Shown here: in pieces, positions 4,373-40,772 of the stretch
Numbering within the stretch: the stretch's first letter is position 1
Layout: the number at the start of each line of letters is the position of its first letter
Virus genome (UHGV): UHGV-0354473
Source of the DNA: a virus
Length of the DNA stretch: 40,772 bases
Strand: one strand, 5' to 3'
Translations under genes and position numbers: made by a program
Notes under the pieces: generated by a model
Database searches by the model: none
Seen by the model: only the letters and a program-made list of their open reading frames with translations
What the model was told of the DNA's origin: nothing

Positions 4373-4399
4373 GGTTTGTCCTCCTTAGCAACCAACATA

Positions 4400-4690
4400 C
4401 TAAACACTATAGCGCAATTCTGCAACCAATTCGTTAACCTGTTCCTTGCTGCCGACGATGCGAACTATGGCGCCGCGCTGGCGCATGCGTTTGTGCTCGC
4501 GGGCCTGGTGCGGGTCGGGGCCGGTGCGCTCGTCTTTCTTCACCTCCACGAACACCACCAGGCCGCCGGGCAGAATGACCAGCAGATCGGGACATCCGTT
4601 GCGCCCCTCGTATCGGATTTTTCTTACCAGGCCGCCGAGTTTTTTAAACTCGGCCATTGCGTAAGCCTGTACTCTTCCCTCCGGCGTCAT
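4400..4690 (-). CDS. VRR-NUC domain nuclease (PD-(D/E)XK fold)
   Basis: GCPDLLVILPGG...VFVEVK matches the VRR-NUC D..E.K catalytic core. Confidence 0.75.
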   Translation of the reverse strand: MTPEGRVQAYAMAEFKKLGGLVRKIRYEGRNGCPDLLVILPGGLVVFVEVKKDERTGPDPHQAREHKRMRQRGAIVRIVGSKEQVNELVAELRYSV

Positions 4691-8538: not shown

Positions 8539-8617
8539 TTTTCGTTTCTCACTTTTTGCGATTCTCCCGGAAACCGCCGGGCCGGTATAAATACGTTAAT
8601 TTAGTTGGTTGCAGATG

Positions 8618-10460: not shown

Positions 10461-10721
10461 TTACACGGTCTCCCAGGTTGCGACCAGTGACGCCGATGCA
10501 TAATCGCAGTGAAGCGCGAACATCGACTGATCCTCGAATACGTAAAAATCAGGCTTAACCATGGTCACCTGCTTAATGCGGGCGGCCTGCGCGCCACGGT
10601 TACCTGGGGGCGGGCATTTGCCGAGGTAGGCGCATTCTTTCGTCTCGCCGTCTGTTCGCAGCAGCCAGAAGGCGATCACATTGTCGCGAGAGTCTCGGCC
10701 TTTCATAAGGGTATATTTCAT
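10461..10721 (-). CDS. Hypothetical 86-aa protein
   Basis: ATG at 10721 with ATGA overlap to the upstream gene. The track's GTG start at 10736 is less likely. Confidence 0.45.
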   Translation of the reverse strand: MKYTLMKGRDSRDNVIAFWLLRTDGETKECAYLGKCPPPGNRGAQAARIKQVTMVKPDFYVFEDQSMFALHCDYASASLVATWETV

Positions 10722-11416
10722 TTTGGCAGCCCACACAAAGCGTTTAAGGTATCCGGGGATAGCGCCACAGCGGCCGTTTGCTTTTTCGTCTCTGGCGGTA
10801 GGAATGGGAAGGCTTCAGGCCATTGTTCCCGTAACTGTTCGGAGGTGTTAACCCTAGCCAGATTAGATCGCATGGTCGCGCGCCATGAAATCACTTCATC
10901 AAACAAGGCGTTATATTCCGCATCAACTTTTGATATGCGCGCCTGTAACTTCTGGTCCGCCGGAAGCAATACGCGCGAGAACGGGACAAAATAACCCTCA
11001 TTTTCTAAAGGGTAGTCCTTACAGATCCACGACCCAAAGAAAGCACTTTCCCACAGGTATGACCCGCCGTGCCCTTGGACCCAGCGGCGATCATGCCCGT
11101 CAATATGCCGGTCGTGTACTTCGCCACCCATTCCGAAGTCTATTTCTATTGCGTGATATTTCTCTTTCGTCACTTCGGTGCATCCGACACGCGCGACAAT
11201 GAATTTATTGCCGAGGGAATTATTAACGCTTTCGATGTTGCCGCGGAACGCGCGGATTGATTCGTCGCTCGTCTTATCGGCGGCAAGGCATCGCTGGCGC
11301 ACAATCTCGACGATGTCGCGGCGCTCTTCCAGGCATGCGATGGCACGCAGGCCGAGTGGCGATTGTTTAAGCAAATTAGTGATCAGCACTTCTTTAATTT
11401 CTTTGGTAAGGCGCAT
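10718..11416 (-). CDS. Hypothetical 232-aa protein
   Basis: ATG at 11416 with AGGAGTAAACCGTT SD. It follows an internal terminator. Confidence 0.5.
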   Translation of the reverse strand: MRLTKEIKEVLITNLLKQSPLGLRAIACLEERRDIVEIVRQRCLAADKTSDESIRAFRGNIESVNNSLGNKFIVARVGCTEVTKEKYHAIEIDFGMGGEVHDRHIDGHDRRWVQGHGGSYLWESAFFGSWICKDYPLENEGYFVPFSRVLLPADQKLQARISKVDAEYNALFDEVISWRATMRSNLARVNTSEQLREQWPEAFPFLPPETKKQTAAVALSPDTLNALCGLPK

Positions 11417-11432
11417 AACGGTTTACTCCTGG

Positions 11433-11456
11433 TTAAAAGCCCCGGCGCGCCGGGGC
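11433..11456 (-). terminator. Intra-operon rho-independent terminator or attenuator (minus strand)
   Basis: GCCCCGGCG-CGCCGGGGC 9-bp-stem palindrome followed by TTTT on the minus strand, immediately after the stop of 11464..11940. Confidence 0.45.
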
Positions 11457-11463
11457 AGATCGG

Positions 11464-11940
11464 TTATTCAGCGTCGTAGAACTCTTCGATCAGCTCTTTC
11501 AGCGCGTCGTGGAATTCGTCCACCTGGTCGTCGTCCAGCTCTTTGACGTTCTTAACTTCGAAGTCTTCCAGCAGGTCGTCGAACTTATCCACCAGCGCGT
11601 CGGCGTCGTCATCGTCCAGACCGACTCCTTCTACGGCAACTTTAGCCATTTCGCCGATCGCTGCGCGCTTGTCGGTGCCTTTCTTGCTGCGGGTGGCCTT
11701 GGCCGGCGCTTCGGTTTTGCCGCCGCGTTTTTTGGTGGTAGTCTTCTCTTCCTGCTCGTCGTCTTCCGGTTCTTCCTTCTTGGCCGGAGCCTTACGGGTG
11801 CGGGTCGGTTTCTCTTCTGCCGGTTTAGCTTTCTCCGCAGAAACCTCGCTGGCGCCGCCTGTGGCCGGTGAAGAGTTAGCGGCGATCAGTTCATGGGCAA
11901 TAACAAAGCGCTCCAGCAGTGCGTAAAATTTCTCGATCAT
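11464..11940 (-). CDS. First leftward early gene: 158-aa protein with a lysine-rich centre and strongly acidic C-terminal helix region
   Basis: ATG at 11940 with AACGAGGA SD. The C-terminal 60 aa are about 45% D/E (DDDDADALVDKFDDLLEDFE...). This is a candidate DNA mimic or host-takeover factor. Confidence 0.55.
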   Translation of the reverse strand: MIEKFYALLERFVIAHELIAANSSPATGGASEVSAEKAKPAEEKPTRTRKAPAKKEEPEDDEQEEKTTTKKRGGKTEAPAKATRSKKGTDKRAAIGEMAKVAVEGVGLDDDDADALVDKFDDLLEDFEVKNVKELDDDQVDEFHDALKELIEEFYDAE

Positions 11941-11984
11941 GGTAAATCCTCGTTTAGTTAAGTTGGTTGCGTTTCGGCGATGTA

Positions 11985-12014
11985 ATAATATGTCCAGATA
12001 AATCAGGATTGCAA
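11985..12014 (-). promoter_or_regulatory. PL-like leftward promoter TTGCAA-18-TATTAT
   Basis: -35 at 12009-12014 and -10 (rc ATAATA) at 11985-11990. It drives 11940 leftward. Confidence 0.5.
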
Positions 12015-12081
12015 GCGCTTTTTCAAATTAAATTGCAGCACCGTTAAAATCAACGACTTAATGATAATCACCAGAGATCGC

Positions 12082-12109
12082 TTGATTATGTGCGGTTAGA
12101 TACTATAGT
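12082..12109 (+). promoter_or_regulatory. PR-like rightward promoter TTGATT-16-TATAGT
   Basis: -35 at 12082-12087 and -10 at 12104-12109, upstream of the Cro-like gene, which has an AAGAGG RBS. Confidence 0.5.
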
Positions 12110-12148
12110 ATTGCAGACGTCAACCTATTTACTAAGAGGATTCCTATA

Positions 12149-12385
12149 ATGGCTACAGCACGCCGTAACCCTTTCCAGCTCCGCGTCAATGCGCGGATGA
12201 AACACCTTGGCCTGCGGCAGCAGGATGTTGTAATGCGCGGGGGACTTTCGCAATCGGCTTTATCTTTCGTGCAGAACGGGCGAACCAGAAGCCTGAGTAT
12301 GGAGAACATCTTTCGCCTTGCGGACGCGCTGGAATGCGATCCGCGCTGGCTTGCGCTTGGGGAAGGCTCCCCGGATAAAAAATAA
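12149..12385 (+). CDS. HTH XRE/Cro-family transcriptional regulator, 78 aa
   Basis: LRQQDVVMRGGLSQSALSFVQNG is a helix-turn-helix of HTH_3 type. It is the first rightward gene in the divergent control region. Confidence 0.8.
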   Translation: MATARRNPFQLRVNARMKHLGLRQQDVVMRGGLSQSALSFVQNGRTRSLSMENIFRLADALECDPRWLALGEGSPDKK

Positions 12386-12450: not shown

Positions 12451-14751
12451 ATGCCACGGTTAAAATCAAAAATATCCTATTCGCTCGGCCGGCATAAAAC
12501 CGACAATCGACCCAAAGCCTTCCTATCCTCCTGGGATGAATTTCTCGCGGACCTTCTGGAGATTGGCTCCGATCCGGTCCTGGGCGTATCTATCAGCGGC
12601 AGCGAATCAGAAGAACGTTACGAAGAGCTGAAAGGGCGGTTGCCGTATGTCGCGGCGGAGTTTGCGAACAACCGGCGCAATAACCCTAACGTCGCGTCCC
12701 GCTCCCTGCTGTTTATCGACATCGACAAAGTATCCAGCAAAGAGATCCGCCGGGTGCGTCGCGCGCTGGAGGATGGCGGCTTTACTTTCTTCGCGTACTC
12801 TACCTGCGGCGACCGGCACGACCTGAAAGGCGGCATAAAGTCGCGGTCCTGGCGATTCATTATCCCCACGGATCGGCCGATGCTGGCGGACGAGATCTGG
12901 CCGTGCCAGCATAAATTCATCGATATGCTCGGGCTGACCGGCGCAAAAGGGATGGACGAAACTGCTTTCCAGCGCGCCCGCCTTATGTTCGCCCCGCACA
13001 TTGAGGCCGAGACCATCGACCACCGCGGCGCGCCCGCCAGCATCCGCCGGATCCTGCGCCACCGGTTCGACGTGCCGGACGAATCGGGCTCGACCAACTG
13101 GACCGACGAAGCGCTGGAGAACGCCAGCGAGAACAGCCAGGCTATCGCTGCGTGGTGCTGGGAGATGGGCCTTGAACCCCTATCCTCTGGCCGCGGCTTC
13201 GCCATACAGTGCCCGAACCACTATCAGCACAGCGACAACGACGGGACCGACGGCAGCACGGCGATCATGATGCCGGATGCGCTTCACCCCGAGGTTCGTT
13301 TCGCGTGCCAGCATGACCACTGCAAAAAGCACAACACCCACCAGCACATGATGCTGCGCCTTTGTGGCGTGCCGGACCAGTATTTGCCGGAAGCCCACAA
13401 TATCAGCAAAAAGCAGATCGCCGAACTGCTGCCGGATTTGCCCGAAGAAGAGGTGACATACGTCTACGAGGCCGAAGTAATGGCGGCGCTGGACGGTCCG
13501 TCCGCCGGTCAGTGTACCGACGAGGACCTGGACGACGACCCGGTTACCCTGTTCACCAAGCGCGATCCCATTATCGAGGGACTGATCAATTTCAAGTCCA
13601 CGTGGTACGCCGCCGGCGAGTCAAATATCGGTAAGTCGTTTTTCGTCCTCGGTCAGATGGCGGCTATTTCCGCCGGGATCCCGTTCGGCGGACGGCGTGT
13701 CGTGCGCGCGCACAACTTTTACTTCGATGCGGAAGGTGGAGAGACCAGCCAGCACCGTAAGCAGGCGCTGCAGAAGATGTATCAGGACGACCTGGACTGG
13801 CTGCATGTCATCGACCTGCAGGATAAAGGCATCGACATTACCGACGCGCGGGGCGTGAAAGAGGTATGCAAGATTATCCGTGACGCGGCCGGAGACGCCC
13901 CCGTTGGCTTGGTGGCCTTCGACTCGCTTAACCAGACCGTAGCCATGCGCAGCTCGGCTAAAAAGCCGTTCGATGAGAACTCCCCGACAGATATGGGGGA
14001 AATTGTCCGCGCGCTGAAACAGATCTCCGAGACCACCGGCGGCAGCGCGGGCGTTATCCACCACCCGGCGAAGTCGTCCTCGGGCCAGCGTACCGCCCGC
14101 GGCTCCGGCGCGCTGCATGGCGCCGTCGACTATGCCTACTTCATCGAGCAGCCGGACGAGACCAAACCGCACCAGATCAACCTGTATCACGAAAAAGCGC
14201 GTAACGGCGTCAAGCAGTCCCCCCGCGGCTTTGTCCTGCTGAAATGTAAAATCGACGTCCCCCAGGCGCACGCCGACCGGGTAGATGCGTACCTGTCCAC
14301 CGCCGCCGGCCCGGACTTTTCCGATCAGCTGTCCGGCTGGACGCCGAAACCGCTGGAGATGTCGCCGCGTGACGAAACGCTTTATCTGGTGCCGGTCGCC
14401 ATGGCGCCATTCGAATCGCCCGCTGCCGAAGTCGCCCGGGAAGCTGTTAAGTCTGCAGGCGGTGCCGGGCCAAAGAATAAAGCCGAGGAGGTGATGGTCG
14501 CCCAGCTTGAACTGCTGGAGGACAAGCCAGAGGGTTATTCGCCCTACGCCATCGGCACCGCAGGCGGAAACAAGTTCACCAGCGGCAACTATAAAAAAGT
14601 GCTGGAAGAACTGGTGCGACGACGGGTTTTAGTGCATGGCCGAAACCCGAATACAGGCGAAGTTTACAACCAACAATACAGGCTGCCGACTGGCTTGAAC
14701 GATTTCGACCCACCGGAATTGGTTGCAAGTGATGAAGACTTAAACTCGTAA
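12451..14751 (+). CDS. Primase-polymerase (AEP-type)/helicase (RecA-like AAA_25) fusion replication protein with zinc motif and C-terminal extension
   Basis: N-terminal LLFIDID (DxD) and FAYSTCG..H motifs, a central Cys/His cluster (CPNHYQH...CQHDHC), Walker A GESNIGKS and Walker B LVAFDSL. Confidence 0.85.
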   Translation: MPRLKSKISYSLGRHKTDNRPKAFLSSWDEFLADLLEIGSDPVLGVSISGSESEERYEELKGRLPYVAAEFANNRRNNPNVASRSLLFIDIDKVSSKEIRRVRRALEDGGFTFFAYSTCGDRHDLKGGIKSRSWRFIIPTDRPMLADEIWPCQHKFIDMLGLTGAKGMDETAFQRARLMFAPHIEAETIDHRGAPASIRRILRHRFDVPDESGSTNWTDEALENASENSQAIAAWCWEMGLEPLSSGRGFAIQCPNHYQHSDNDGTDGSTAIMMPDALHPEVRFACQHDHCKKHNTHQHMMLRLCGVPDQYLPEAHNISKKQIAELLPDLPEEEVTYVYEAEVMAALDGPSAGQCTDEDLDDDPVTLFTKRDPIIEGLINFKSTWYAAGESNIGKSFFVLGQMAAISAGIPFGGRRVVRAHNFYFDAEGGETSQHRKQALQKMYQDDLDWLHVIDLQDKGIDITDARGVKEVCKIIRDAAGDAPVGLVAFDSLNQTVAMRSSAKKPFDENSPTDMGEIVRALKQISETTGGSAGVIHHPAKSSSGQRTARGSGALHGAVDYAYFIEQPDETKPHQINLYHEKARNGVKQSPRGFVLLKCKIDVPQAHADRVDAYLSTAAGPDFSDQLSGWTPKPLEMSPRDETLYLVPVAMAPFESPAAEVAREAVKSAGGAGPKNKAEEVMVAQLELLEDKPEGYSPYAIGTAGGNKFTSGNYKKVLEELVRRRVLVHGRNPNTGEVYNQQYRLPTGLNDFDPPELVASDEDLNS

Positions 14752-15055
14752 AATAATACGTGTTGCGAGTCTTGCGAATCGACTCGCAAGACTCGCAAAA
14801 TTTTGCGAATGAAATTGCGAGTAATGTTTTCAATAACTTAGGTGCTTTTTGTTGGTTTTCGCAAAAATGGATTGCGAGTCGGTAGGTAAGTGATTGATTT
14901 GGTGGGGGATTTTGTCTCGCAAAGTGAGTCGATCACGTTATTGCGTCTCAGGCGAGCTGCCCTTTGGCGGGCGTCGCCAAGAGAACGCAGTGATCGTATC
15001 ATATTTTTTGCGAGTTTGCAATAGCTGGAATGTAAATATCACGGCAGCAAGTACC
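14745..15055. repeat. Non-coding regulatory module copy 1: ACTCGCAA iterons (six or more), a GATC-flanked GC hairpin and a conserved TGATCGTATCAT-TTTTTGCGAG...TGTAAA core. Homologous to 24240-24530.
   Basis: Similarity to copy 2 starts at the last codons of the upstream gene (AACTCGTAA). The 42-bp iteron block 14781-14822 differs by 2 bp from 24267-24308. Confidence 0.7.
14763..14798. repeat. 36-bp near-perfect palindrome TTGCGAGTCTTGCGAATC|GACTCGCAAGACTCGCAA, made of four ACTCGCAA/TTGCGAGT half-sites
   Basis: 15-bp perfect inverted arms with a single mismatch in the full 18+18 alignment. Confidence 0.8.
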
Positions 15056-15304
15056 TGATACGGGGTGGCGGGATAATTTTTCTGGTTGGTTGCGGTGATT
15101 CTGGCAGCGGGTTACGTTGGATTTAGTGTCGGTAATGGGTGGTAACCTATATGGCTAATAGGCTCTCGTATAGCAGGTCTGGCGGGCATTGGGGATGGCG
15201 GGCTCTATTAAGATTAGTCCTAGCGAAATCCGCACTCCACGCGCACAAGTAGGCTAGTAGACTACCATACCAGTTACCGCGGCCCTTATTTTTGCTATCC
15301 GGTA

Positions 15305-15334
15305 TTGCAACCAACATTGATTTAGACATATACT
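15305..15334 (+). promoter_or_regulatory. Rightward promoter TTGCAA-18-TATACT for the early small-gene operon
   Basis: -35 is the first hexamer of the TTGCAACCAACA element (15305-15316). -10 is at 15329-15334, and the first gene has a GAGGAG RBS. Confidence 0.5.
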
Positions 15335-15364
15335 CAGAGGACCGAAACGAGAGGAGCAAATATC

Positions 15365-15607
15365 ATGTTTAAGAAAGGCCAGGTGTGGCGGGCAAACGCA
15401 AGCGGGAACACCTATCTTGTATTGAGCGTACCGAATATCCACAGAGCCACCGTAGTGCGTATGACAGGTCCGGCAGAAGGGCAAAAAGGGTGGATTGGCG
15501 TAAACGCAGCCCAACGTCGCTACACGTTAATCGGCAACAACTACCAGGAGCGCCCGACACGCAAAGCTCTACCCGAGCAACGCGGTTGCCGCAAAGAGGA
15601 TTGTTAA
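15365..15607 (+). CDS. Hypothetical 80-aa protein
   Basis: ATG with GAGGAG SD. It is the first gene after the long non-coding region. Confidence 0.5.
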   Translation: MFKKGQVWRANASGNTYLVLSVPNIHRATVVRMTGPAEGQKGWIGVNAAQRRYTLIGNNYQERPTRKALPEQRGCRKEDC

Positions 15608-16300: not shown

Positions 16301-16653
16301 CCGACAACGTAAACCACCCGTCGCACTACACCCAGGGCGGTGTCGAGTGCATCGACGCGATAACGGCAGCAACCGTAAACAAGACCGGGATCGAAGCGGT
16401 ATGCACGGCCAACGTCATTAAGTACCTCTGGCGCTACGAGGGCAAGAACGGCCTGGAGGACGTGAAGAAGGCGCAATGGTACTTAAACCGGCTGATCGCC
16501 GAGATGGAGGGTAAGCCGGTGGCACCGGAAGTAGAATGTCCGCATGAGTGGGTCGCATATGGGATGTCTAAGGATAAAGGGACCGGCGTACTCGCCACTC
16601 TTAGCCGCTGCCGTCTATGCGGACGCCGTGAGCGTTCGGGGGTTGAAGTATGA
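16297..16653 (+). CDS. DUF3310-like phage protein (HPSHY motif)
   Basis: The N-terminal NHPSHYTQGGVECIDAI matches the DUF3310 signature. ATGA overlap with the upstream gene. Confidence 0.55.
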   Translation: MTDNVNHPSHYTQGGVECIDAITAATVNKTGIEAVCTANVIKYLWRYEGKNGLEDVKKAQWYLNRLIAEMEGKPVAPEVECPHEWVAYGMSKDKGTGVLATLSRCRLCGRRERSGVEV

Positions 16654-17093
16654 GCCTTGCAACCGACATTCTGAAACGCCTGAATAAGGCCGCGCCGCCG
16701 AAATCGGCAGAACCTGAGGTGCAACAAGTGGTACCAGTGCCACTATCGAAAAAGCCTGATACGATAGCGGCAGGGCCAACACGGTCATATAACCGGGATG
16801 AAATGTCTATTGCTAATGCCAAACTTAGAGCGGCGGGTAAGCCACGTCGTGTAGTGTACAGCAAGCCAACTGATAAGTTATTTGGCGTCCGCCTAATGCG
16901 TAGGAGCGGATTATATAGCGCGCGCCCGCGGATAGATGGCGTGGAAACCTGTCTCGGTGAATTTGCTAAGCCTGAGAGAGCTGGAATAGCCGCAAGGCTG
17001 TATTATTTATGGCACAGCAGAGGGTTTACGGACATTCCGAGGGGGATAGCTTGCGGGTACATTGACTTTGCGCGCTTCGACCCATTCCCATAA
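16650..17093 (+). CDS. AP2-domain DNA-binding protein
   Basis: GVRLMRRSGLYSARPRIDGVETCLGEFAKPERAGIAARLYY resembles an AP2/ERF-type domain as found in phage HNH-associated proteins. Confidence 0.55.
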   Translation: MSLATDILKRLNKAAPPKSAEPEVQQVVPVPLSKKPDTIAAGPTRSYNRDEMSIANAKLRAAGKPRRVVYSKPTDKLFGVRLMRRSGLYSARPRIDGVETCLGEFAKPERAGIAARLYYLWHSRGFTDIPRGIACGYIDFARFDPFP

Positions 17094-17159: not shown

Positions 17160-17438
17160 ATGGACAGATATTTCTGGCTTGTCGTCGCTGCCGTATGTGG
17201 CGGCATCGTGGCCCAGGTGAAGAAAGCAGAGCAGCTACCGTTATGGAAGCGCTGCGCTCACCTGGCCGCCGGTGCCGCTTGTGCCGTTTACTTCTCACCG
17301 TTTGGGATCCGCTATTTCGAGCTGGCGGACACCGACGGGCAATACCTGGTGCCTTTCGTGATCGGCGCCTTCTGGTGGAAATTCTTCGAGGCCCTGGAAG
17401 TGGCGGCGAGCAGCTTTAAACTACCGTGGGGTAAATAG
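17160..17438 (+). CDS. Holin-like protein, 92 aa, three predicted TM helices
   Basis: ATG at 17160 with GGGGG SD. It sits immediately upstream of a second TM protein and the endolysin. Confidence 0.55.
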   Translation: MDRYFWLVVAAVCGGIVAQVKKAEQLPLWKRCAHLAAGAACAVYFSPFGIRYFELADTDGQYLVPFVIGAFWWKFFEALEVAASSFKLPWGK

Positions 17439-17440
17439 CC

Positions 17441-17725
17441 ATGCTTAGTGCCTTCTGCCTTTCCGTTATCGCCGCAACCGCGCTGTTTAATATTTATGCC
17501 CACTGGATTGACGACGGCCTGCTGGGCCGGCTGGTGTTCATGGGCCTGTTTCTCACCTGCGGCGCCGGGCTGATCCACATCTACAAAGACGGCAGCGCGC
17601 CGCTATTCATCTGGTCAACACTCCTTGTGCTGGTCACCCTTTCATTTCTGCGCAGCGTCTGCGTTAAGTCGGTGCGCTATATCAAATATCGGAGATTAAT
17701 CCATGCGAAGAACAGTCAGCGATAA
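17441..17725 (+). CDS. Second holin/antiholin-like membrane protein, 94 aa, three TM helices, basic C-terminus
   Basis: GTGGGG SD. Its hydrophobic profile and position make it a lysis-cassette member. Confidence 0.5.
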   Translation: MLSAFCLSVIAATALFNIYAHWIDDGLLGRLVFMGLFLTCGAGLIHIYKDGSAPLFIWSTLLVLVTLSFLRSVCVKSVRYIKYRRLIHAKNSQR

Positions 17726-18197
17726 CGCCGTTGAATTTGCCCGGCGCTGGGAGACGTTTAAGCCTGTGCCATATTACGCAACTGCCAAAGAGAAAGAGCT
17801 GGGGATCCTGACCTGGGGTTACGGCCATACTGGTACGCGAGCCCAGGCGCCGGCAAGTATCACGGAGCCGGACGCACGGGCCTTACTGCGCCAGGATATG
17901 ACGCACGCTTGTGTTATCGTCGATGCCGCCGCGCATCCGCTGGTCACCGGGCCATATTTCGACGCTATGGTGGACCTGGTATTCAACGCCGGGCCGAAAG
18001 TTATCGGCGCCGATACGGGTACCGGCCAGGCGCTGCGCCGTGGTGATATTGCGACGCTGCGCACCAAGCTGCCGCAGTTCATCTATCAGGGTGGTAAACC
18101 ATTGCTGGGGCTGCGCCGGCGTGCAACCGGGCGACTCGCGCTGTTCGACGGCAAATCGGCAGCTGAGGCCGAGGCTATTGGCAGAGCTGTGAAGTAG
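17703..18197 (+). CDS. Putative endolysin, lysozyme-like (GH24-like GYGHTG motif)
   Basis: The WGYGHTG motif and its position directly after the holin genes. The catalytic-residue spacing is atypical, so the call is only moderately confident. Confidence 0.55.
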   Translation: MRRTVSDNAVEFARRWETFKPVPYYATAKEKELGILTWGYGHTGTRAQAPASITEPDARALLRQDMTHACVIVDAAAHPLVTGPYFDAMVDLVFNAGPKVIGADTGTGQALRRGDIATLRTKLPQFIYQGGKPLLGLRRRATGRLALFDGKSAAEAEAIGRAVK

Positions 18198-18276: not shown

Positions 18277-18345
18277 GACCGCCACTTGTAATGTTGGTTG
18301 CAATATGGTTATACTCATATCGTCAATCACACAGGAGCAAACGAA

Positions 18346-23121: not shown

Positions 23122-23201
23122 CCCATTTAATTAACATAGTGATCGGCGTTCCTGCCGTCATAACCATTATTCTTTTGGCGATAGTGTTGGTGGGCGCATG
23201 A
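23118..23201 (+). CDS. Tiny 27-aa hydrophobic peptide (MTHLINIVIGVPAVITIILLAIVLVGA)
   Basis: ATGA overlaps with the portal stop and with the next gene's start. It is entirely a single TM helix. Confidence 0.3.
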   Translation: MTHLINIVIGVPAVITIILLAIVLVGA

Positions 23202-24247
23202 GTATCTTAACCGCTTTTATCAGCCACCAGATCTGGCTCCAGCGTAACGCCTCGCATGAGGTGAACGAGCTGGAGCCGTTCATCCAGCAGATGCGCGACG
23301 AGGTTAAATCGCAGGTACTGGCTTTCGGGGACGAGAGCCGCACCCGTGGGCGCCTGCAGGCGATGCTAAAGGACCTGGAGGATATCCTTTACGCCATTTC
23401 CGCGGGATGGGAGGACCGCTTACAGCAGGACCTGCAAAAGCTGGCCGAGTACGAGACCGACTGGACGACTGACACGCTGTCCGGGAACGTTAACGCCAGT
23501 TTCACCGCGCCATCACCCGAGCAGGTCTGGTCAGCTATTAAATTCAATCCACTGCAGCTGGAAGGTAAACCGGTAGACTTCCAGGATATGCTAACCAGCT
23601 GGCAGGATACCGAGATTAACCGCCTGGTGACCGGCGTTAAGTCCGGTTTCGTGCAGGGCATGACAACACGCGACATCGTCCGCCAGGTAGTCGGCCCAGG
23701 CGGCCTGGCGGACGTGTCAAACCGTAATGCGGCAACGGTGGTGCGTACGGCAATAAACCACGTATCGACCGAGGCTAAAAACCTCGTCTATCAGAAAAAC
23801 GACGATATCGTGGAAGGCTACGAGCTGGTGGTTACCCTGGACAAGCGCACCTCTTCGATCTGCCGTAACCTGCCGCATGGCAAAGTCTACGACATCGGCA
23901 AGGGGCCGCTGCCACCGTTGCACCCGAACTGCCGGACGACCACGGCGCCGGTGATCAGCAGCGAGTTCGATTTCCTGGACGTCGGGGCAAAACGGGCGGC
24001 GCGTGGGGCCGATGGCGGTACGCAGGTAGACGCGGACACGTCATACTATGAATTCCTGCAGATGCAGCCGGCGTGGTTCCAGGATGAAGCACTCGGCCCG
24101 GTACGGGGTAATATTTTCCGTAACAGCGGTATGACTGCGGAGGAATTCAGGGCTGCGTCGGTCGACGGTTTCGGACGTCCGCTGACCCTGCGCGAGATGG
24201 CGGAGAACGATAAACGCGTTGCAAAATTCCTGTCCGGGAACTCGTAA
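23198..24247 (+). CDS. Head morphogenesis protein, Phage Mu F-like (SPP1 gp7-like)
   Basis: TLDKRTSSICRNLPHGKVYDIGKGPLPPLHPNCRTTTAP matches the Mu_F signature (D.RT..C...G.....PP.H.NCRC). Confidence 0.8.
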   Translation: MSILTAFISHQIWLQRNASHEVNELEPFIQQMRDEVKSQVLAFGDESRTRGRLQAMLKDLEDILYAISAGWEDRLQQDLQKLAEYETDWTTDTLSGNVNASFTAPSPEQVWSAIKFNPLQLEGKPVDFQDMLTSWQDTEINRLVTGVKSGFVQGMTTRDIVRQVVGPGGLADVSNRNAATVVRTAINHVSTEAKNLVYQKNDDIVEGYELVVTLDKRTSSICRNLPHGKVYDIGKGPLPPLHPNCRTTTAPVISSEFDFLDVGAKRAARGADGGTQVDADTSYYEFLQMQPAWFQDEALGPVRGNIFRNSGMTAEEFRAASVDGFGRPLTLREMAENDKRVAKFLSGNS

Positions 24248-24530
24248 TAAATTACGCGTAACGGTGACTCGCAAGACTCGCAAAATTTTGCGAGTCGAAT
24301 TGCGAGTATAAATATCAAGGACTTACGCTCATTTCGTTGGTTGCTGCCGTTTTAGTTTGCGAGTGGTGAAATTAGGTGAGTAAAATCAAGGAGTTACAAC
24401 GTGGAAGGCTGAATCGATCACTTCAATTGCTTGTTGCGCGCCCGCCCTAGCGGGGCGTCGCTCAAAAGCGAAGCTGATCGTATCATTTATTTTGCGAGAA
24501 ATCAACGGCAGCAATTGTAAAGGTGGCGAT
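24240..24530. repeat. Non-coding regulatory module copy 2, homologous to 14745-15055: four ACTCGCAA half-sites in palindrome, a GATC-flanked GC hairpin and the TTTTGCGAG...TTGTAAAGG core running into the Rz RBS
   Basis: Iteron block 24266-24308, TCGATCAC at 24414-24421, CTGATCGTATCAT at 24474-24486 and TTGCGAG at 24492-24498. Confidence 0.7.
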
Positions 24531-24920
24531 ATGGGCTTAAGACTTTATTTTATAACGGTGGGTTTAATGGCACTTCTTGCGTGGGGCGCCGGTGAGTGGT
24601 CTTTTCGTGCGGGGTGGCATGAGGGCCGCGCGAAGCTGGCAGCCCAGCAGGAAGAGAAGGCCCGGGCGACTCTGGCGAAGCAGGTAGCCGGACAGCAGGT
24701 GAACGATACGAAGGCCGCCGAAGCCGAACAGGCCGGCTCCGCGAAAACCGTAGTAATAACCCGAGAGGTGGTTAAATATGTGCAAAATCATGATCGTGTG
24801 CGCTGTACTTTTGACGATGACCGGGTGCGGATCAAGCAGCGGTCCGTCGATAATGCCAACACCATCCCAGGCTATGATGGTGAAGCCGTGCCAGTTTCAG
24901 CCGGCGGAAAAGGACAGTGA
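24531..24920 (+). CDS. i-spanin (Rz-like): N-terminal TM anchor plus periplasmic coiled-coil
   Basis: ATG at 24531 with AAGGTGG SD. The TM segment is LYFITVGLMALLAWGA, the domain is helical and Ala/Gln/Glu-rich, and the o-spanin gene is embedded in the +1 frame. Confidence 0.6.
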   Translation: MGLRLYFITVGLMALLAWGAGEWSFRAGWHEGRAKLAAQQEEKARATLAKQVAGQQVNDTKAAEAEQAGSAKTVVITREVVKYVQNHDRVRCTFDDDRVRIKQRSVDNANTIPGYDGEAVPVSAGGKGQ

Positions 24921-25026
24921 CGAAGATTTGAATGCGGACGTGCAGAACATGGATTGTGGGAGAAAGTTAAGGCTGCAGGTGTACCAGCTGCAGGACTGGA
25001 TCCGGAATGTGACAACGCCCCTATAA
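24778..25026 (+). CDS. o-spanin (Rz1-like) outer-membrane lipoprotein, overlapped with Rz
   Basis: Signal MCKIMIVCAVLLTMTG-C lipobox followed by a Pro-rich mature region (SSSGPSIMPTPS). GAGGTGG SD. It starts inside Rz in another frame. Confidence 0.6.
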   Translation: MCKIMIVCAVLLTMTGCGSSSGPSIMPTPSQAMMVKPCQFQPAEKDSDEDLNADVQNMDCGRKLRLQVYQLQDWIRNVTTPL

Positions 25027-25040
25027 CGGGGCGTTTTTTA
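25017..25040. terminator. Bidirectional rho-independent terminator shared by Rz1 (+) and the antisense mini-operon (-)
   Basis: GCCCC-TATAA-CGGGGC hairpin followed by GTTTTTTA. The minus-strand ORF stop lies in the hairpin. Confidence 0.6.
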
Positions 25041-25161
25041 TCAACCAGGCCAGGCCCCAGCAGACGAAGGCGATGGTTAGCCACGCTGCCGGGAGATAGA
25101 CCAGAAACACCCGGCGCCGTTGCTGGTACTTCGTCGGGTTACGCTTTGCCATTGGTTTCAT
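25021..25161 (-). CDS. Small 46-aa membrane peptide (MKPMAKRNPTKYQQRRRVFLVYLPAAWLTIAFVCWGLAWLIKNAPL)
   Basis: Not in the ORF track (<60 aa). ATGA coupling to the upstream basic ORF, a basic N-terminus followed by one TM helix, and a terminator immediately after. Confidence 0.45.
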   Translation of the reverse strand: MKPMAKRNPTKYQQRRRVFLVYLPAAWLTIAFVCWGLAWLIKNAPL

Positions 25162-25310
25162 CGGCCGAATCTCCTTGCGGCTTTATGAATCCATTTTGGT
25201 GTTTTCCCAAGACTCAAAATGGTGTACGCAGTAGCGAGACGACGCGCACAACGACGGAGGCGGCGTAAGTCGACCTTTCCGGATTTACGGTATTTAGTTG
25301 ATACAGGCAT
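25158..25310 (-). CDS. Small 50-aa highly basic protein (MPVSTKYRKSGKVDLRRLRRCARRLATAYTILSLGKTPKWIHKAARRFGR)
   Basis: Not in the ORF track. Strong SD AAAGGAG 8 nt upstream of ATG 25310. It is transcribed from the conserved leftward promoter 25341-25369. Confidence 0.45.
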   Translation of the reverse strand: MPVSTKYRKSGKVDLRRLRRCARRLATAYTILSLGKTPKWIHKAARRFGR

Positions 25311-25340
25311 AGCTATTGCTCCTTTGTTGTTGGTTTCTTA

Positions 25341-25369
25341 AATATAATATGTCTCCACTCATATTGCAA
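25341..25369 (-). promoter_or_regulatory. Leftward promoter TTGCAA-17-TATATT; about 40 bp near-identical to the promoter element at 1774-1808
   Basis: -35 at 25364-25369 (part of TTGCAACCAACA at 25364-25375) and -10 (rc AATATA) at 25341-25346. Confidence 0.55.
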
Positions 25370-25471
25370 CCAACATTTGCAGATATATTGTTAATACTTG
25401 CGCTGCCCTGTATATTTAGCGTATGTAAATCCGGGTGGCCCGGATTCATAAAGACCAGGGGTCTACGTACT

Positions 25472-26167
25472 ATGAATCGTTTTTTACAGTCTTTCCTTTT
25501 CGCGTATCAAGAAGAACATGACGACGGATCCCAGGGCGGTGGCGGCGGTGCAGAAGCGCCGAAGACCTACACTCAGGAAGAAGTCGACGAGCTGGTTAAT
25601 GGCCTTAAAAACCAGAATACCGCGCTTCTCGATGAGAAGAAGAAAGCCGCACAACGTGCGAGGGAAGCCGAAGCCGAACGTGTTCGCGCGCAGCAGGAAG
25701 CGGCGAAGCAGTCCGGTCAGATGGAAGAGTTCGAAAAGTCGATTCGTGGTCAGTATGACCCTGTGATCGCCGAGAAAGACGGTAAGATCACCAAGCTGGC
25801 CGAGCGCATCCTCGGCAGCGAGCGCAAAGCCGTTATGGGTGCCGTGATTGCTAAAGGCAAATTCATTGATGCCGAAGCCGCCGACCTTATCGCACCATTT
25901 ATCAAAGTCGAGTTCGACGGTGATGACCTGGTGACGAAATTCGTCGGCCCAGACGGCGCAGTTATTACGACGGACGTCGATAAATTCATCGACTTCTGTA
26001 AAAAGCATAAGGTGATCTCTCATCTCATGCAGGCAGACACAGCGAACGGTGGCGGGGCCGCCGGGAACAAAAATCCTACTGGCGGGGCCGGTGGCGAGCA
26101 CTTGACAGGCATCGAAAAAACTCGGGCCGATCTCCGTAAGCGTCTTGACGCAGAAAATAAGGGTTAA
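25472..26167 (+). CDS. Scaffolding protein, 231 aa
   Basis: Alpha-helical, charged, coiled-coil-rich protein directly upstream of the major capsid gene. Start moved to ATG 25472; the track ORF begins inside the promoter region. Confidence 0.6.
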   Translation: MNRFLQSFLFAYQEEHDDGSQGGGGGAEAPKTYTQEEVDELVNGLKNQNTALLDEKKKAAQRAREAEAERVRAQQEAAKQSGQMEEFEKSIRGQYDPVIAEKDGKITKLAERILGSERKAVMGAVIAKGKFIDAEAADLIAPFIKVEFDGDDLVTKFVGPDGAVITTDVDKFIDFCKKHKVISHLMQADTANGGGAAGNKNPTGGAGGEHLTGIEKTRADLRKRLDAENKG

Positions 26168-31284: not shown

Positions 31285-31359
31285 GGTATATTCCTCTTTG
31301 AAAGTTCTATATGTATATAATCATATCGCAACCAACAAATCAACCATAGCGGGTTAAAA

Positions 31360-38640: not shown

Positions 38641-40772
38641 TGTCAAGCGGATGCGGCGACGTCTTATCGCTGGAAGATCTGAAAACAGCCAAGAAGCACC
38701 AGACCTTCGAGGCCGAAGTTATCACAGGTAAAGCTGGAGGCACGCCCTCCGGCAGTAGCATTGACAACGCAACCAATAGCGTTACAGGACAAGTACAAAA
38801 AACCATGCCGGCAATTATGCGGGATGCCGGTATAGCGTTTAATGACCAATTAAGCGACCAGGAAAGTAGATTTCAGCAATTTCTTTTGGATTCTGGTTAT
38901 CAGTTTTTAGGTGATTATGAAAACGGGCCTTACGCTATAACGGCTCGTAACCAGGTCATCAGGTATCAAAATGAACTATGGAGGCTAAATGCTGCAACAA
39001 ATCCAACATATGTAACAACGGGGACTAGCAGCACTTCATGGGCAGTAGATGTCACCCATTTGGTGAGTGTTGGTGATGGCGCATTGCGGCAAGAACTGGC
39101 AAGTAAATTAACGCCGGGCGCTAAAATGATTGCAACTGCTTTTGGCACTGTTAATGACGCAATAATTTCTGTTCCAATTGACGGTTTTGCGGGGGCGGAT
39201 CCTACTGGCGTATCAGATTCATCATCTGCATATGACCTGGCGGTAATGACCATCAATAACGTAACAGATAGTCGTATGGATGGGTCTATTAATACCCGTT
39301 ACGCTGCGATAAAATTTGGGCGTGGAAGATACATAATTGGCGACAAAGTAATAAAATCAGGATTTATTATTGAAGGTGATGGGGCATTTGTAACATGCAT
39401 TATGCCAAAAGCTGGGGCTGAATGGATTTTCAAATCAGAAGGAACCGAACCTTATGAAACACATGGGTCATCATATCGATTATTTAGACCAATAATAAGA
39501 AACTTACATATCGGTTGTGGTTTTCAAAACGTATTTACTGATTACCCTATCCCCTCTGGTGTAGGCGGGATATATATTGCTCATGCCTCATATATCACAA
39601 TGGAGAATGTCTACATGAGGCATCTACATGGTGCTGGTTTGAGATTAGAATCCGCATGGGATAGTGAATTCTATAATGTGAGAATGATGTATGTTGGTCT
39701 TGGTACCACTGCCGCTAACCCCAAATGGGCGCTGTATATCGGCCCTGGTAACGCGCCTACTGATGGATCAAATGCTAACCGCTTTTATGGTATTCATATC
39801 GAGGGATGTCCAGCACCTGTTTGTGTTGACTTACGTAGCCGTCATAATTTTTTCATGGGAGGAAAAATAGAAAACGTAAGATATAACGACCCCAATGCGT
39901 ATGTTTCCAGTCTTATCAGGGGTGTTGACGGACTAGTTTTCGCTAACATGGAGTTATCCCATAGTGGCATAAGTAAGTTTATGTTTGAGGGGGTAGGTAC
40001 AACAACAATTATTGACACAAGCGCAGATGATGTGTCAGACCCTAACTGTGATCATTCACGCGGGGTTGTTTTCCTTAACCCCAGCATTATTGATAGTAAC
40101 GCGCTGTCTGGTGACTATTTCAAATATAAGTCAGAACGTGGCGTTTTGCGCGTTGTAGGTGGGTACGCCAGACATTCACGCTACCTGTTTAGCGGTTCTG
40201 ACATACGCATATCTAATTTTCAAATGGTTCAGTGTGGTCCTACTTTGGGGCTACTACAAGGAAATGTTATTTTAGATGGTGTTGATGTTAGCAGAAGTAG
40301 AGTTTTAGCTAGTGGTTCTTTCTCTGCGTTCACCGCTACAGGTAATGATAATATCGTACGAAATAGTAATTTCAGCACACCGTATGGTAACATGGCGGAT
40401 GGTAACTCATGGTTCACCCAAAACTCGGCAACAGATATTTACTATAGCGATATTAAATTCGGCGGTTCTTTGCAAAACGGTATCAGTGGTTCCACCGCCG
40501 CGCAGCAAAGGAAAATGCGTAATATTAAATTTATGTCAGGGGCCTCGTATGGTGCTTTGATTAATGGTGGCTACGCTTTTGAGGGATTCCCCGCGCAGGT
40601 AAGGGCCAATACCGGTTACGCCATAACGACAATGATTACCATAGCTGCGGATGCCACAAGTGTTGTTTCTGATTTTGTGGGCGGCGGCTGCGATATTGAT
40701 GTTTCTGTAGAAACATCAGTTTCAGTATATGTTGCCGGTGGTAAACTGTTCGGTGATGCGAGGATATCTTTA
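38641..40772 (+). CDS. Tailspike protein, partial (710 aa, runs off the window): conserved N-terminal anchor domain plus low-GC right-handed beta-helix, probably a glycanase
   Basis: ATG at 38641 with AGAGGA SD. Frame 1 is open to the window end. Repetitive beta-helix-like motifs are present (NVRMMYVGLG..., IHIEGCPAPV..., FANMELSHSG...). GC drops from about 38850. Confidence 0.75.

Follow-up and report, generated by a model that had tools for sequence, protein, structure and literature searches.

A duplicated iteron-and-hairpin module is the probable replication origin of a virulent siphophage related to Klebsiella phages

We analyzed the UHGV virus genome UHGV-0354473, a stretch of 40,772 nucleotides (here called the window, to which coordinates refer unless another genome is named), and concentrated on a noncoding module of about 300 bp that occurs in it twice. 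Module A follows the gene of a 766-amino-acid (aa) replicative primase-helicase, and module B follows the MuF head gene, 9.5 kb away. Our data indicate that module A is probably the replication origin of this phage and module B a duplicated copy of it. The ~40-kb genome is that of a virulent siphophage whose nearest isolates are the Klebsiella phages VLCpiS11a and 37P2 (Guernseyvirinae), to which both module regions show 81 to 94% DNA identity. To our knowledge, the replication origins of Guernseyvirinae-like and Dhillonvirus phages are unmapped. The parts of the two modules, together with the gene of their proposed reader, are as follows.

12451-14751, plus strand: replicative primase-helicase gene, 766 aa, proposed initiator (PHROG 3228, "replicative helicase-primase," E 4e-262)
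14413-14748, plus strand: primase-helicase C-terminal region (residues 655-766) with the winged-helix domain, proposed iteron reader
14744-15060: module A, proposed primary origin, with iterons, hairpin, AT tract, and constant core, after the primase-helicase gene
14744-14751, plus strand: variant iteron ACTCGTAA over the primase-helicase stop codon
14763-14779, minus strand: two inverted iterons (TTGCGAGT and TTGCGAAT)
14782-14822: four-site block A, with two direct ACTCGCAA copies, the centre AAAATTTT, and inverted TTGCGAAT and TTGCGAGT
14872-14879, minus strand: iteron TTGCGAGT, aligning with the module B site at 24357-24364
14915-14922, plus strand: one-mismatch iteron TCTCGCAA
14925-15001: 77-nt compound hairpin A, with basal stem TGA..TCGATCAC / GTGATCG..TCA and a GC-rich tip
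14997-15015: AT-rich tract TATCATATTTTTT, then iteron TTGCGAGT (15008-15015); GC content is 35% over 14980-15039
15039-15050, plus strand: constant core CACGGCAGCAAG, shared, past the hairpin, with lineages whose iterons are quite unlike these
24240-24530: module B, paralogue of module A downstream of the MuF head gene, possible second origin or crr-like enhancer
24240-24247, plus strand: variant iteron ACTCGTAA over the MuF stop codon
24267-24307: four-site block B, with two direct ACTCGCAA copies, the centre AAAATTTT, and two inverted TTGCGAGT copies
24357-24364, minus strand: iteron TTGCGAGT
24410-24485: 76-nt compound hairpin B
24481-24499: AT-rich tract TATCATTTATTTT, then one-mismatch iteron TTGCGAGA (24492-24499)
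24503-24514, plus strand: constant core CAACGGCAGCAA

All 11 exact copies of the octamer ACTCGCAA in the 40.8-kb window lie inside the modules, 6 at 14763-15015 and 5 at 24267-24364, while dinucleotide shuffles gave an expectation of 1.3 ± 1.25 per window. With one mismatch allowed, module A has 10 iteron sites and module B has 7, and the 10 sites of module A (6 of them exact) all fall within 270 bp past the stop codon of the primase-helicase gene. A prior interpretation made without database searches (the sequence-only reading) had described a four-site palindromic block in each copy. The two direct and two inverted sites are indeed present at 14782-14822 and 24267-24307; however, the blocks differ at three positions, not two. 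Block A is nearly invariant in relatives, with GCTCGCAA as the outer-left site in VLCpiS11a.

The two modules have their parts in identical order and orientation. Pairwise alignment (MAFFT was also run) gave 73% identity over 281 aligned nt, with a score of 77 compared to 3.1 ± 2.2 (maximum, 21) for shuffled module B; in the noniteron columns identity was still 68%, not near random. The duplication of a ~300-bp module at about 70% identity, as first proposed, is thereby confirmed, and so is the claim that similarity begins at the last codons of the upstream genes: it starts at the 9-mer AACTCGTAA, itself a one-mismatch iteron, which spans the stop codons at 14749-14751 and 24245-24247. The conserved strings reported for the third part were also found, including a CGGCAGCAA element in each module, except that CGGCAGCAA and TGTAAA trade places from one copy to the other. 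Small open reading frames (ORFs) overlap the modules; we rejected them as coding, because non-triplet indels separate the copies.

The primase-helicase has Pfam matches to AAA_25 (residues 364-543), a RecA-fold domain of the RepA/DnaB-like helicase class, and to BT4734-like_N (residues 61-122); it had no sequence match in the PDB. The VLCpiS11a protein is 95% identical to it. Its C-terminal ~85 to 110 residues model as a winged helix, and the C-terminal ~110 residues are the most divergent part of the protein. A homologue search with the C-terminal fragment alone found nothing, whereas the full-length query did find homologues. The same primase-helicase, at 45 to 60% identity, is encoded by Cornellviruses, Dhillonviruses, and many uncultured phages. 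We surveyed 42 IMG/VR loci (given L numbers below) plus isolates encoding it, using a simple k-mer screen for repeats. Nearly all lineages carry 5 to 8 short repeats, in both orientations, within ~400 bp downstream of the primase-helicase gene. The repeats are 7 to 9 bp long and their sequence is lineage specific: TCGCAA-type in L025, as in the window; TTCCGCACA in L026; GGGGAGA in Cornellvirus; CGGACAA, TCCGACA, AGGGATA, and GGGGATG in Cornell-like lineages; and GCGGGACA in Dhillonvirus. Kagunavirus and Jerseyvirus, whose primase-helicases are 29 to 32% identical and have genes directly after them, showed no such clusters. Matches of L004 and L006 to an 18-nt palindrome were discarded as single chance matches in unrelated contigs. 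Pattern scans for the iterons of other lineages, meant to reveal second copies there, were overwhelmed by unrelated matches.

The lineage-specific repeats allowed a co-variation comparison, in which identity over the body of the primase-helicase was set against identity over its last 85 residues for pairs of loci, as follows.

L094 and L065 (GGGGAGA versus CGGACAA): body 95%, last 85 residues 41%
L093 and L094 (TCCGACA versus GGGGAGA): body 90%, last 85 residues 49%
L093 and L070 (both TCCGACA): body 78%, last 85 residues 80%
L068 and L093 or L070 (all TCCGACA): body 79% or 77%, last 85 residues 61% or 64%

Likewise, the window and L025, which have the TCGCAA-type iteron in common, are 52% identical in the C-terminal region, for each the highest value. 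The Cro-like helix-turn-helix (HTH) protein encoded at 12149-12385 served as a control. It is 99 to 100% identical in L094, L065, and L093 despite three different iterons, is 100% identical in L068 and L095 despite different iterons, and is just 37 to 54% identical among the three TCCGACA phages. Moreover, its own promoter region (11940-12149) contains zero iterons. On the strength of this control we rejected the Cro-like HTH as iteron binder. Since the C-terminal domain co-varies with the repeats and the HTH does not, the iterons are most simply taken as sites for the primase-helicase C-terminal domain. These comparisons indicate that iteron specificity is set by the C-terminal winged helix, and they show what appears to be repeated swapping of origin specificity through exchange of an ~85-residue domain plus its iterons.

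A long hairpin follows the iterons in both modules. Hairpin A folds at −38.8 kcal/mol as RNA (z, −4.9) and −22.1 kcal/mol as DNA (z, −5.6), and hairpin B folds at −33.3 kcal/mol (z, −3.2) and −20.5 kcal/mol (z, −3.7), respectively. Across A and B variants, six hairpin pairs have compensatory double substitutions. The sequence-only reading had called this element a GC hairpin flanked by GATC; the hairpin is real, but GATC is not special. The window contains 184 GATC sites, and in VLCpiS11a-type A copies four compensatory changes abolish both GATC sites of the stem while keeping it paired. Changes that lose GATC and preserve the stem indicate that the hairpin is selected as a structure and that GATC is incidental, and a GATC/Dam role was therefore dropped. 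A hairpin follows the repeats in all seven lineages checked: by folding in this clade, Dhillonvirus, Cornellvirus, L025, L026, and L027, and by eye in L065 and related lineages. The folded hairpins have z values of −2.3 to −5.6, except L027, with just −1.3. Past the hairpin lies a constant segment, composed of an AT-rich tract and (C)ACGGCA(G/A)CAA, with the core CACGGCAGCAA. Directly after the hairpin, this clade and L025 have a T-rich run, whereas the other lineages have A-rich or mixed sequence there (mckay, AATAAAAT; L026, TTAAAAAAATG; Cornellvirus, ATCCCTCACG). The combination of variable iterons, a hairpin conserved in structure, and a constant tract and core fits variable recognition coupled to a constant initiation site. 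In Cornell-like lineages, a conserved direct-repeat pair, (G)TGAATAGTTATGC ... GTGAATAGTTAT, was also seen between the stop codon and the lineage iterons (13775-13815 in L024, 12317-12360 in L065, 12312-12345 in L068, 12302-12335 in L071, and 8472-8505 in L095); it has no counterpart in the window modules.

A cluster of sites just after the initiator gene, sites in both orientations, a hairpin with an AT tract, and an invariant segment together make up the anatomy of an iteron-type origin. We infer that binding, melting or unwinding, and priming take place at module A. The C-terminal winged helix of the primase-helicase would read the 8-bp ACTCGCAA iterons downstream of its own gene, in both orientations and including two sites that face two others across AAAATTTT. 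Several bound protomers could then load the RepA/DnaB-like helicase ring, the neighboring long hairpin and AT-rich tract would provide a structure that is easily opened or extruded, and priming would begin in the constant core CACGGCAGCAA. Module B repeats these parts without change of order or orientation, so it may be another origin or else, in the manner of P4 crr, an additional region to which the initiator binds and which boosts initiation.

Modules A and B are both kept in 10 of the 10 genomes of this Klebsiella phage clade (the window, VLCpiS11a, 37P2, and seven IMG/VR contigs), so that both copies are present in close relatives. Module B is 92 to 94% identical across the clade, whereas at least four unrelated N termini occur in the gene on its right; in the four-site block of module B, the three inner sites are invariant and the outer-left site varies, and the changes in its hairpin preserve the stem. 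This pattern argues that module B is under constraint. The C terminus of MuF reads ...SGNS* in the clade, compared to ...KGL*, ...KEE*, or ...KGD* in phages without module B, and this rewritten end suggests that the first iteron and the stop codon arrived with the module. The Dhillonviruses (mckay and SO-1) have a second GCGGGACA module of their own, with the tail chaperone gene on one side and the tape-measure gene on the other; the two copies lie ~16.6 kb apart and are 87% identical in mckay. Cornellviruses (FSL SP-031 and SE1) have one copy, the one after the primase-helicase gene. The cassette thus seems to have been duplicated independently at least twice, in at least two lineages, and then kept, which suggests a benefit from two initiator-loading sites.

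A more far-reaching version is a bipartite origin built from a duplicable cassette of iterons, hairpin, and constant core, read by a primase-helicase not of the P4 type with a swappable winged helix and copied in at least two lineages, with the heptamer CGGCAGC perhaps serving as a primase start signal both at the origin and in Okazaki priming. We put it forward tentatively, as a possibility that is rather doubtful in its full form; if true, independent copying of the cassette implies selection for two initiator-loading sites.

Several observations weigh against an origin at module A with a duplicate at module B. The AT-rich centre AAAATTTT between the opposed site pairs is 8 bp, far shorter than the AT-rich regions of Staphylococcus aureus pathogenicity island (SaPI) type, and a bigger AT-rich stretch (GC content, 30%) lies just past the block. 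One copy suffices in Cornellviruses, so the mechanism does not require a second. Four of the 42 loci (L063, L066, L072, and L076) had no clear iteron in the simple k-mer screen; L061 and L094 were also blank in the screen, but they are of the Cornell type, whose GGGGAGA was removed by the low-complexity filter, and direct search found the GGGGAGA iteron in L094 (the FSL SP-031 contig). The cumulative GC-skew minimum lies at ~12 to 14 kb, although it is uninformative because it coincides with the switch in transcription direction. Finally, a T-run follows the hairpin in this clade, so the hairpin could also terminate transcription.

This last point belongs to an unlikely alternative that nonetheless accounts for several features, namely, that the modules are transcription-control cassettes in which the hairpin and T-run terminate the upstream operon and the repeats are operators of a phage transcription factor, for example, the Cro-like HTH, which controls a promoter for the genes that follow. 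T-rich tracts follow both hairpins, weak sigma-70-like sites occur within the modules (TCGCCA-17-TATCAT in A and TTGCGA-18-TAAAAT in B), and module B extends up to the ribosome-binding site of an Rz-like spanin gene. In addition, T1-like phages are thought to have "transcripton" modules with flanking terminators (PMC11447400). However, it is the primase-helicase C-terminal domain, not the HTH, that co-varies with the repeats, and the promoter region of the HTH is iteron free. The promoter-like sites in A and B are not homologous in position, and a good promoter for the genes past module A (15305-15334) lies outside the module. A terminator scan found none at either hairpin, its sole match in region A being at 15105-15119, downstream of the module. 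The T-run is not conserved in related lineages that keep the hairpin, which makes a canonical terminator a poor candidate for the conserved function, and where a second copy exists, in two lineages, the genes that it precedes are unrelated. A terminator, operator, or promoter is possible as an extra role in this clade. As for the two readings first offered for the modules, co-variation and position support replication elements, whereas a shared operator is not favored and packaging elements found no support.

Co-variation speaks to recognition rather than function, and the primase-helicase might instead bind the repeats for autoregulation, titration (a "handcuffing" sink), or replisome anchoring, with the origin elsewhere, for example, transcription primed near the divergent promoters at ~12.0 kb. 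The GC-skew minimum near 12 to 14 kb would suit such a location, and plasmids offer a precedent in iteron clusters that control copy number by titration (P1 incA and F incC). We consider this quite improbable: the sites lie downstream of the primase-helicase gene and not at its promoter, a pure sink has no need of a conserved hairpin, AT tract, and constant core, and the genome contains no other iteron cluster to act as the "real" origin.

Still less probable is that each module encodes a structured small RNA of ~100 nt, which would start at a promoter ahead of the hairpin and end in the T-run. In module B, TTGCGA-18-TAAAAT precedes the hairpin by ~25 nt, and the hairpin has compensatory changes, but these fit a DNA hairpin or cruciform equally. 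At the homologous position in module A the −10 element (TGATTT) is poor, conservation within the modules is lowest between the putative start and the hairpin, and the hairpins of other lineages are without a terminator tail. Nor is there support from Rfam 15: the window had no match at the gathering threshold, and the two module regions had none at E ≤ 0.1, only chance-level ones (E 0.45 to 0.9), and ARAGORN found no tRNA or tmRNA. Least credible of all is a reading of the modules as elements that have moved from one intergenic position to another, whether as mobile or recombinogenic "boundary" sequences or as sites for packaging or partition: close relatives are mosaic to the right of each module and MuF seems to have received its stop codon from module B, but mosaic junctions are expected beside any conserved cis element, no terminal inverted repeats, target duplications, or transposase were found, the modules occupy just two fixed positions per clade, no ParAB genes were identified in this virulent phage, and the position does not suggest a link to the terminase (terminase-linked covariation was not looked for).

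The proposed origin at module A resembles several known systems in part. In SaPIs, the C-terminal winged helix of Rep binds 6 to 12 iterons immediately downstream of rep, with at least two sites in opposite orientation on each side of an AT-rich centre, and specificity varies between elements (PMC9371898). The phage module is like the Rep-ori arrangement of SaPIs and other phage-inducible chromosomal islands (PICIs) in having iterons just after its own initiator gene, in both orientations, with a proposed winged-helix reader whose type tracks the iteron type. The parallel would be one of function, not homology, since SaPI Rep is AAA+/SF3-like and the phage protein has the RecA-fold AAA_25 domain. 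Furthermore, the SaPI AT-rich centre spans tens of base pairs compared to 8 bp here, and the phage module has a long hairpin and the CACGGCAGCAA core after the iterons, is duplicated, and resides in a virulent siphophage that encodes a DNA polymerase.

Phage P4 has the octamer TGTTCACC as its iteron and needs crr, a second iteron region several kilobases from ori, in cis. Similarly, the octamer repeats here recur in a second region, with module B lying 9.5 kb away and holding 7 sites. On the other hand, crr is a tandem 120-bp repeat and not a full ori paralogue, and we know of no long hairpin described for P4. The P4 alpha protein, a Toprim primase with an SF3 helicase, has no sequence relationship to the phage primase-helicase, yet both fuse primase, helicase, and winged helix in one polypeptide. 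In alpha, the C-terminal winged helix binds the origin repeats (PMC4234260).

The hairpin has a counterpart in the origin of pRN1, where a stem-loop of ~100 nt directly after the prim-pol/helicase/winged-helix gene (ORF904) is required for replication and its pairing matters (PMC4234260). The phage hairpin of 76 to 77 nt, with its compensatory changes, is in the same relative place; pRN1, however, has no iterons and an SF3 helicase, whereas in the phage iterons precede the hairpin. A stem-loop origin has also been proposed for Bordetella phages BIP-1/BPP-1. In RSF1010 oriV, initiator iterons stand beside the ssiA/ssiB hairpins, which become accessible to a dedicated primase once the DNA unwinds (PMC4234260). 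RSF1010 RepA belongs to the same Pfam AAA_25-type family as the phage helicase, but RepC, RepA, and RepB' are separate proteins and the two ssi hairpins face each other, compared to one fused protein and one hairpin per module in the phage. A precedent in a sister group is the GenBank record of Sodalis phage SO-1 (GQ502199; L020), which annotates two mutually similar repeat regions, "region A" and "region B," located at 11214-11597 and 40178-40657 (in order of position). The one at 40178-40657 lies right after the homologous helicase-primase gene, and both contain GCGGGACA iterons and a hairpin; SO-1 differs in its iteron and in having the second copy before the tape-measure gene and not after MuF. 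Literature searches returned no description of the modules of the window or of the SO-1 regions.

The principle is thus a known one, with the logic of SaPI, P4, and pRN1 extended to a different helicase class. What is new is the RecA-fold helicase, the combination of iterons, hairpin, and constant core, the repeated co-exchange of reader and iterons, and the independent duplication of the cassette. Phages of these groups include many Klebsiella, Salmonella, and Escherichia coli phages under study as candidate antibacterials. The analysis gives them a concrete candidate origin and a candidate protein-DNA recognition pair, offers natural matched sets for how a winged helix reads 7- to 9-bp sites, and may explain incompatibility or interference between co-infecting relatives.

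The genome around the modules is organized in two arms. Genes for the DNA polymerase, helicase, and exonuclease form the leftward arm. The rightward arm begins with the Cro-like HTH gene, followed by the primase-helicase gene and then by small genes, lysis genes, the terminase, the portal, MuF (23198-24247), and further head and tail genes. The label AP2, which the sequence-only reading had attached to the gene at 16650-17093, received no confirmation from Pfam or PHROGs. A gene on the minus strand at 10718-11416 has an Nmad5 domain (nucleotide-modification-associated domain 5; E 1e-26), which hints at DNA base modification in the phage.

Noncoding DNA runs 300 bp past module A (15060-15364). 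Its first part (15060-15200) is variable, with 37P2-like relatives carrying instead an insert with a small annotated ORF, and ~15205-15300 is nearly invariant among relatives; a good sigma-70-like promoter, TTGCAA-18-TATACT, follows at 15305-15334, upstream of the gene at 15365. Past module B, the Rz-like spanin gene (24531-24920) lies amid head genes, with the holin and endolysin genes (17195-18197) 6 kb distant, and its N terminus is mosaic across close relatives. Small minus-strand ORFs come after it (24920-25480), with a promoter-like site of the TTGGTTGC type at 25366.

Two words stand out genome wide. CGGCAGC (8-mer ACGGCAGC) is the most overrepresented word of the genome, with 67 copies in the window; 62 are in genes, compared to 15.3 ± 3.8 under synonymous-codon shuffling (~4-fold). 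Copies fall in every reading frame and on either strand, fairly evenly, at about 1 per 0.6 kb, and the word belongs to the constant core (e.g., 15042-15048, 24344-24350 on the minus strand, and 24506-24512). Complete genomes with this primase-helicase subtype have 45 to 70 copies and the shorter partial loci L025 to L027 have 31 to 48, while the word is two- to fourfold rarer in Kagunavirus and Jerseyvirus (18 to 22 copies). CGGCAGC could be a primase start or another replication signal.

The second word, TTGGTTGC, has 13 copies (1.6 expected), nearly always intergenic and one inside module B, at the following positions.

1799-1806, 4388-4395, 4422-4429, 8605-8612, 11963-11970, 14719-14726, 15086-15093, 15307-15314, 18294-18301, 24337-24344, 25366-25373, 31328-31335, 38769-38776

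Several copies are part of a longer TTGGTTGC(A/G)ATATGAGTGGATACATA upstream of genes in either orientation. Counterparts were seen in L025 (GTTGGCCGC), L027 (GTTGGCAGC), Cornellvirus (GTTGGCTGC), and mckay (TATTGGTTGCC), and TTGGTTGC is probably a promoter-associated or regulator site.

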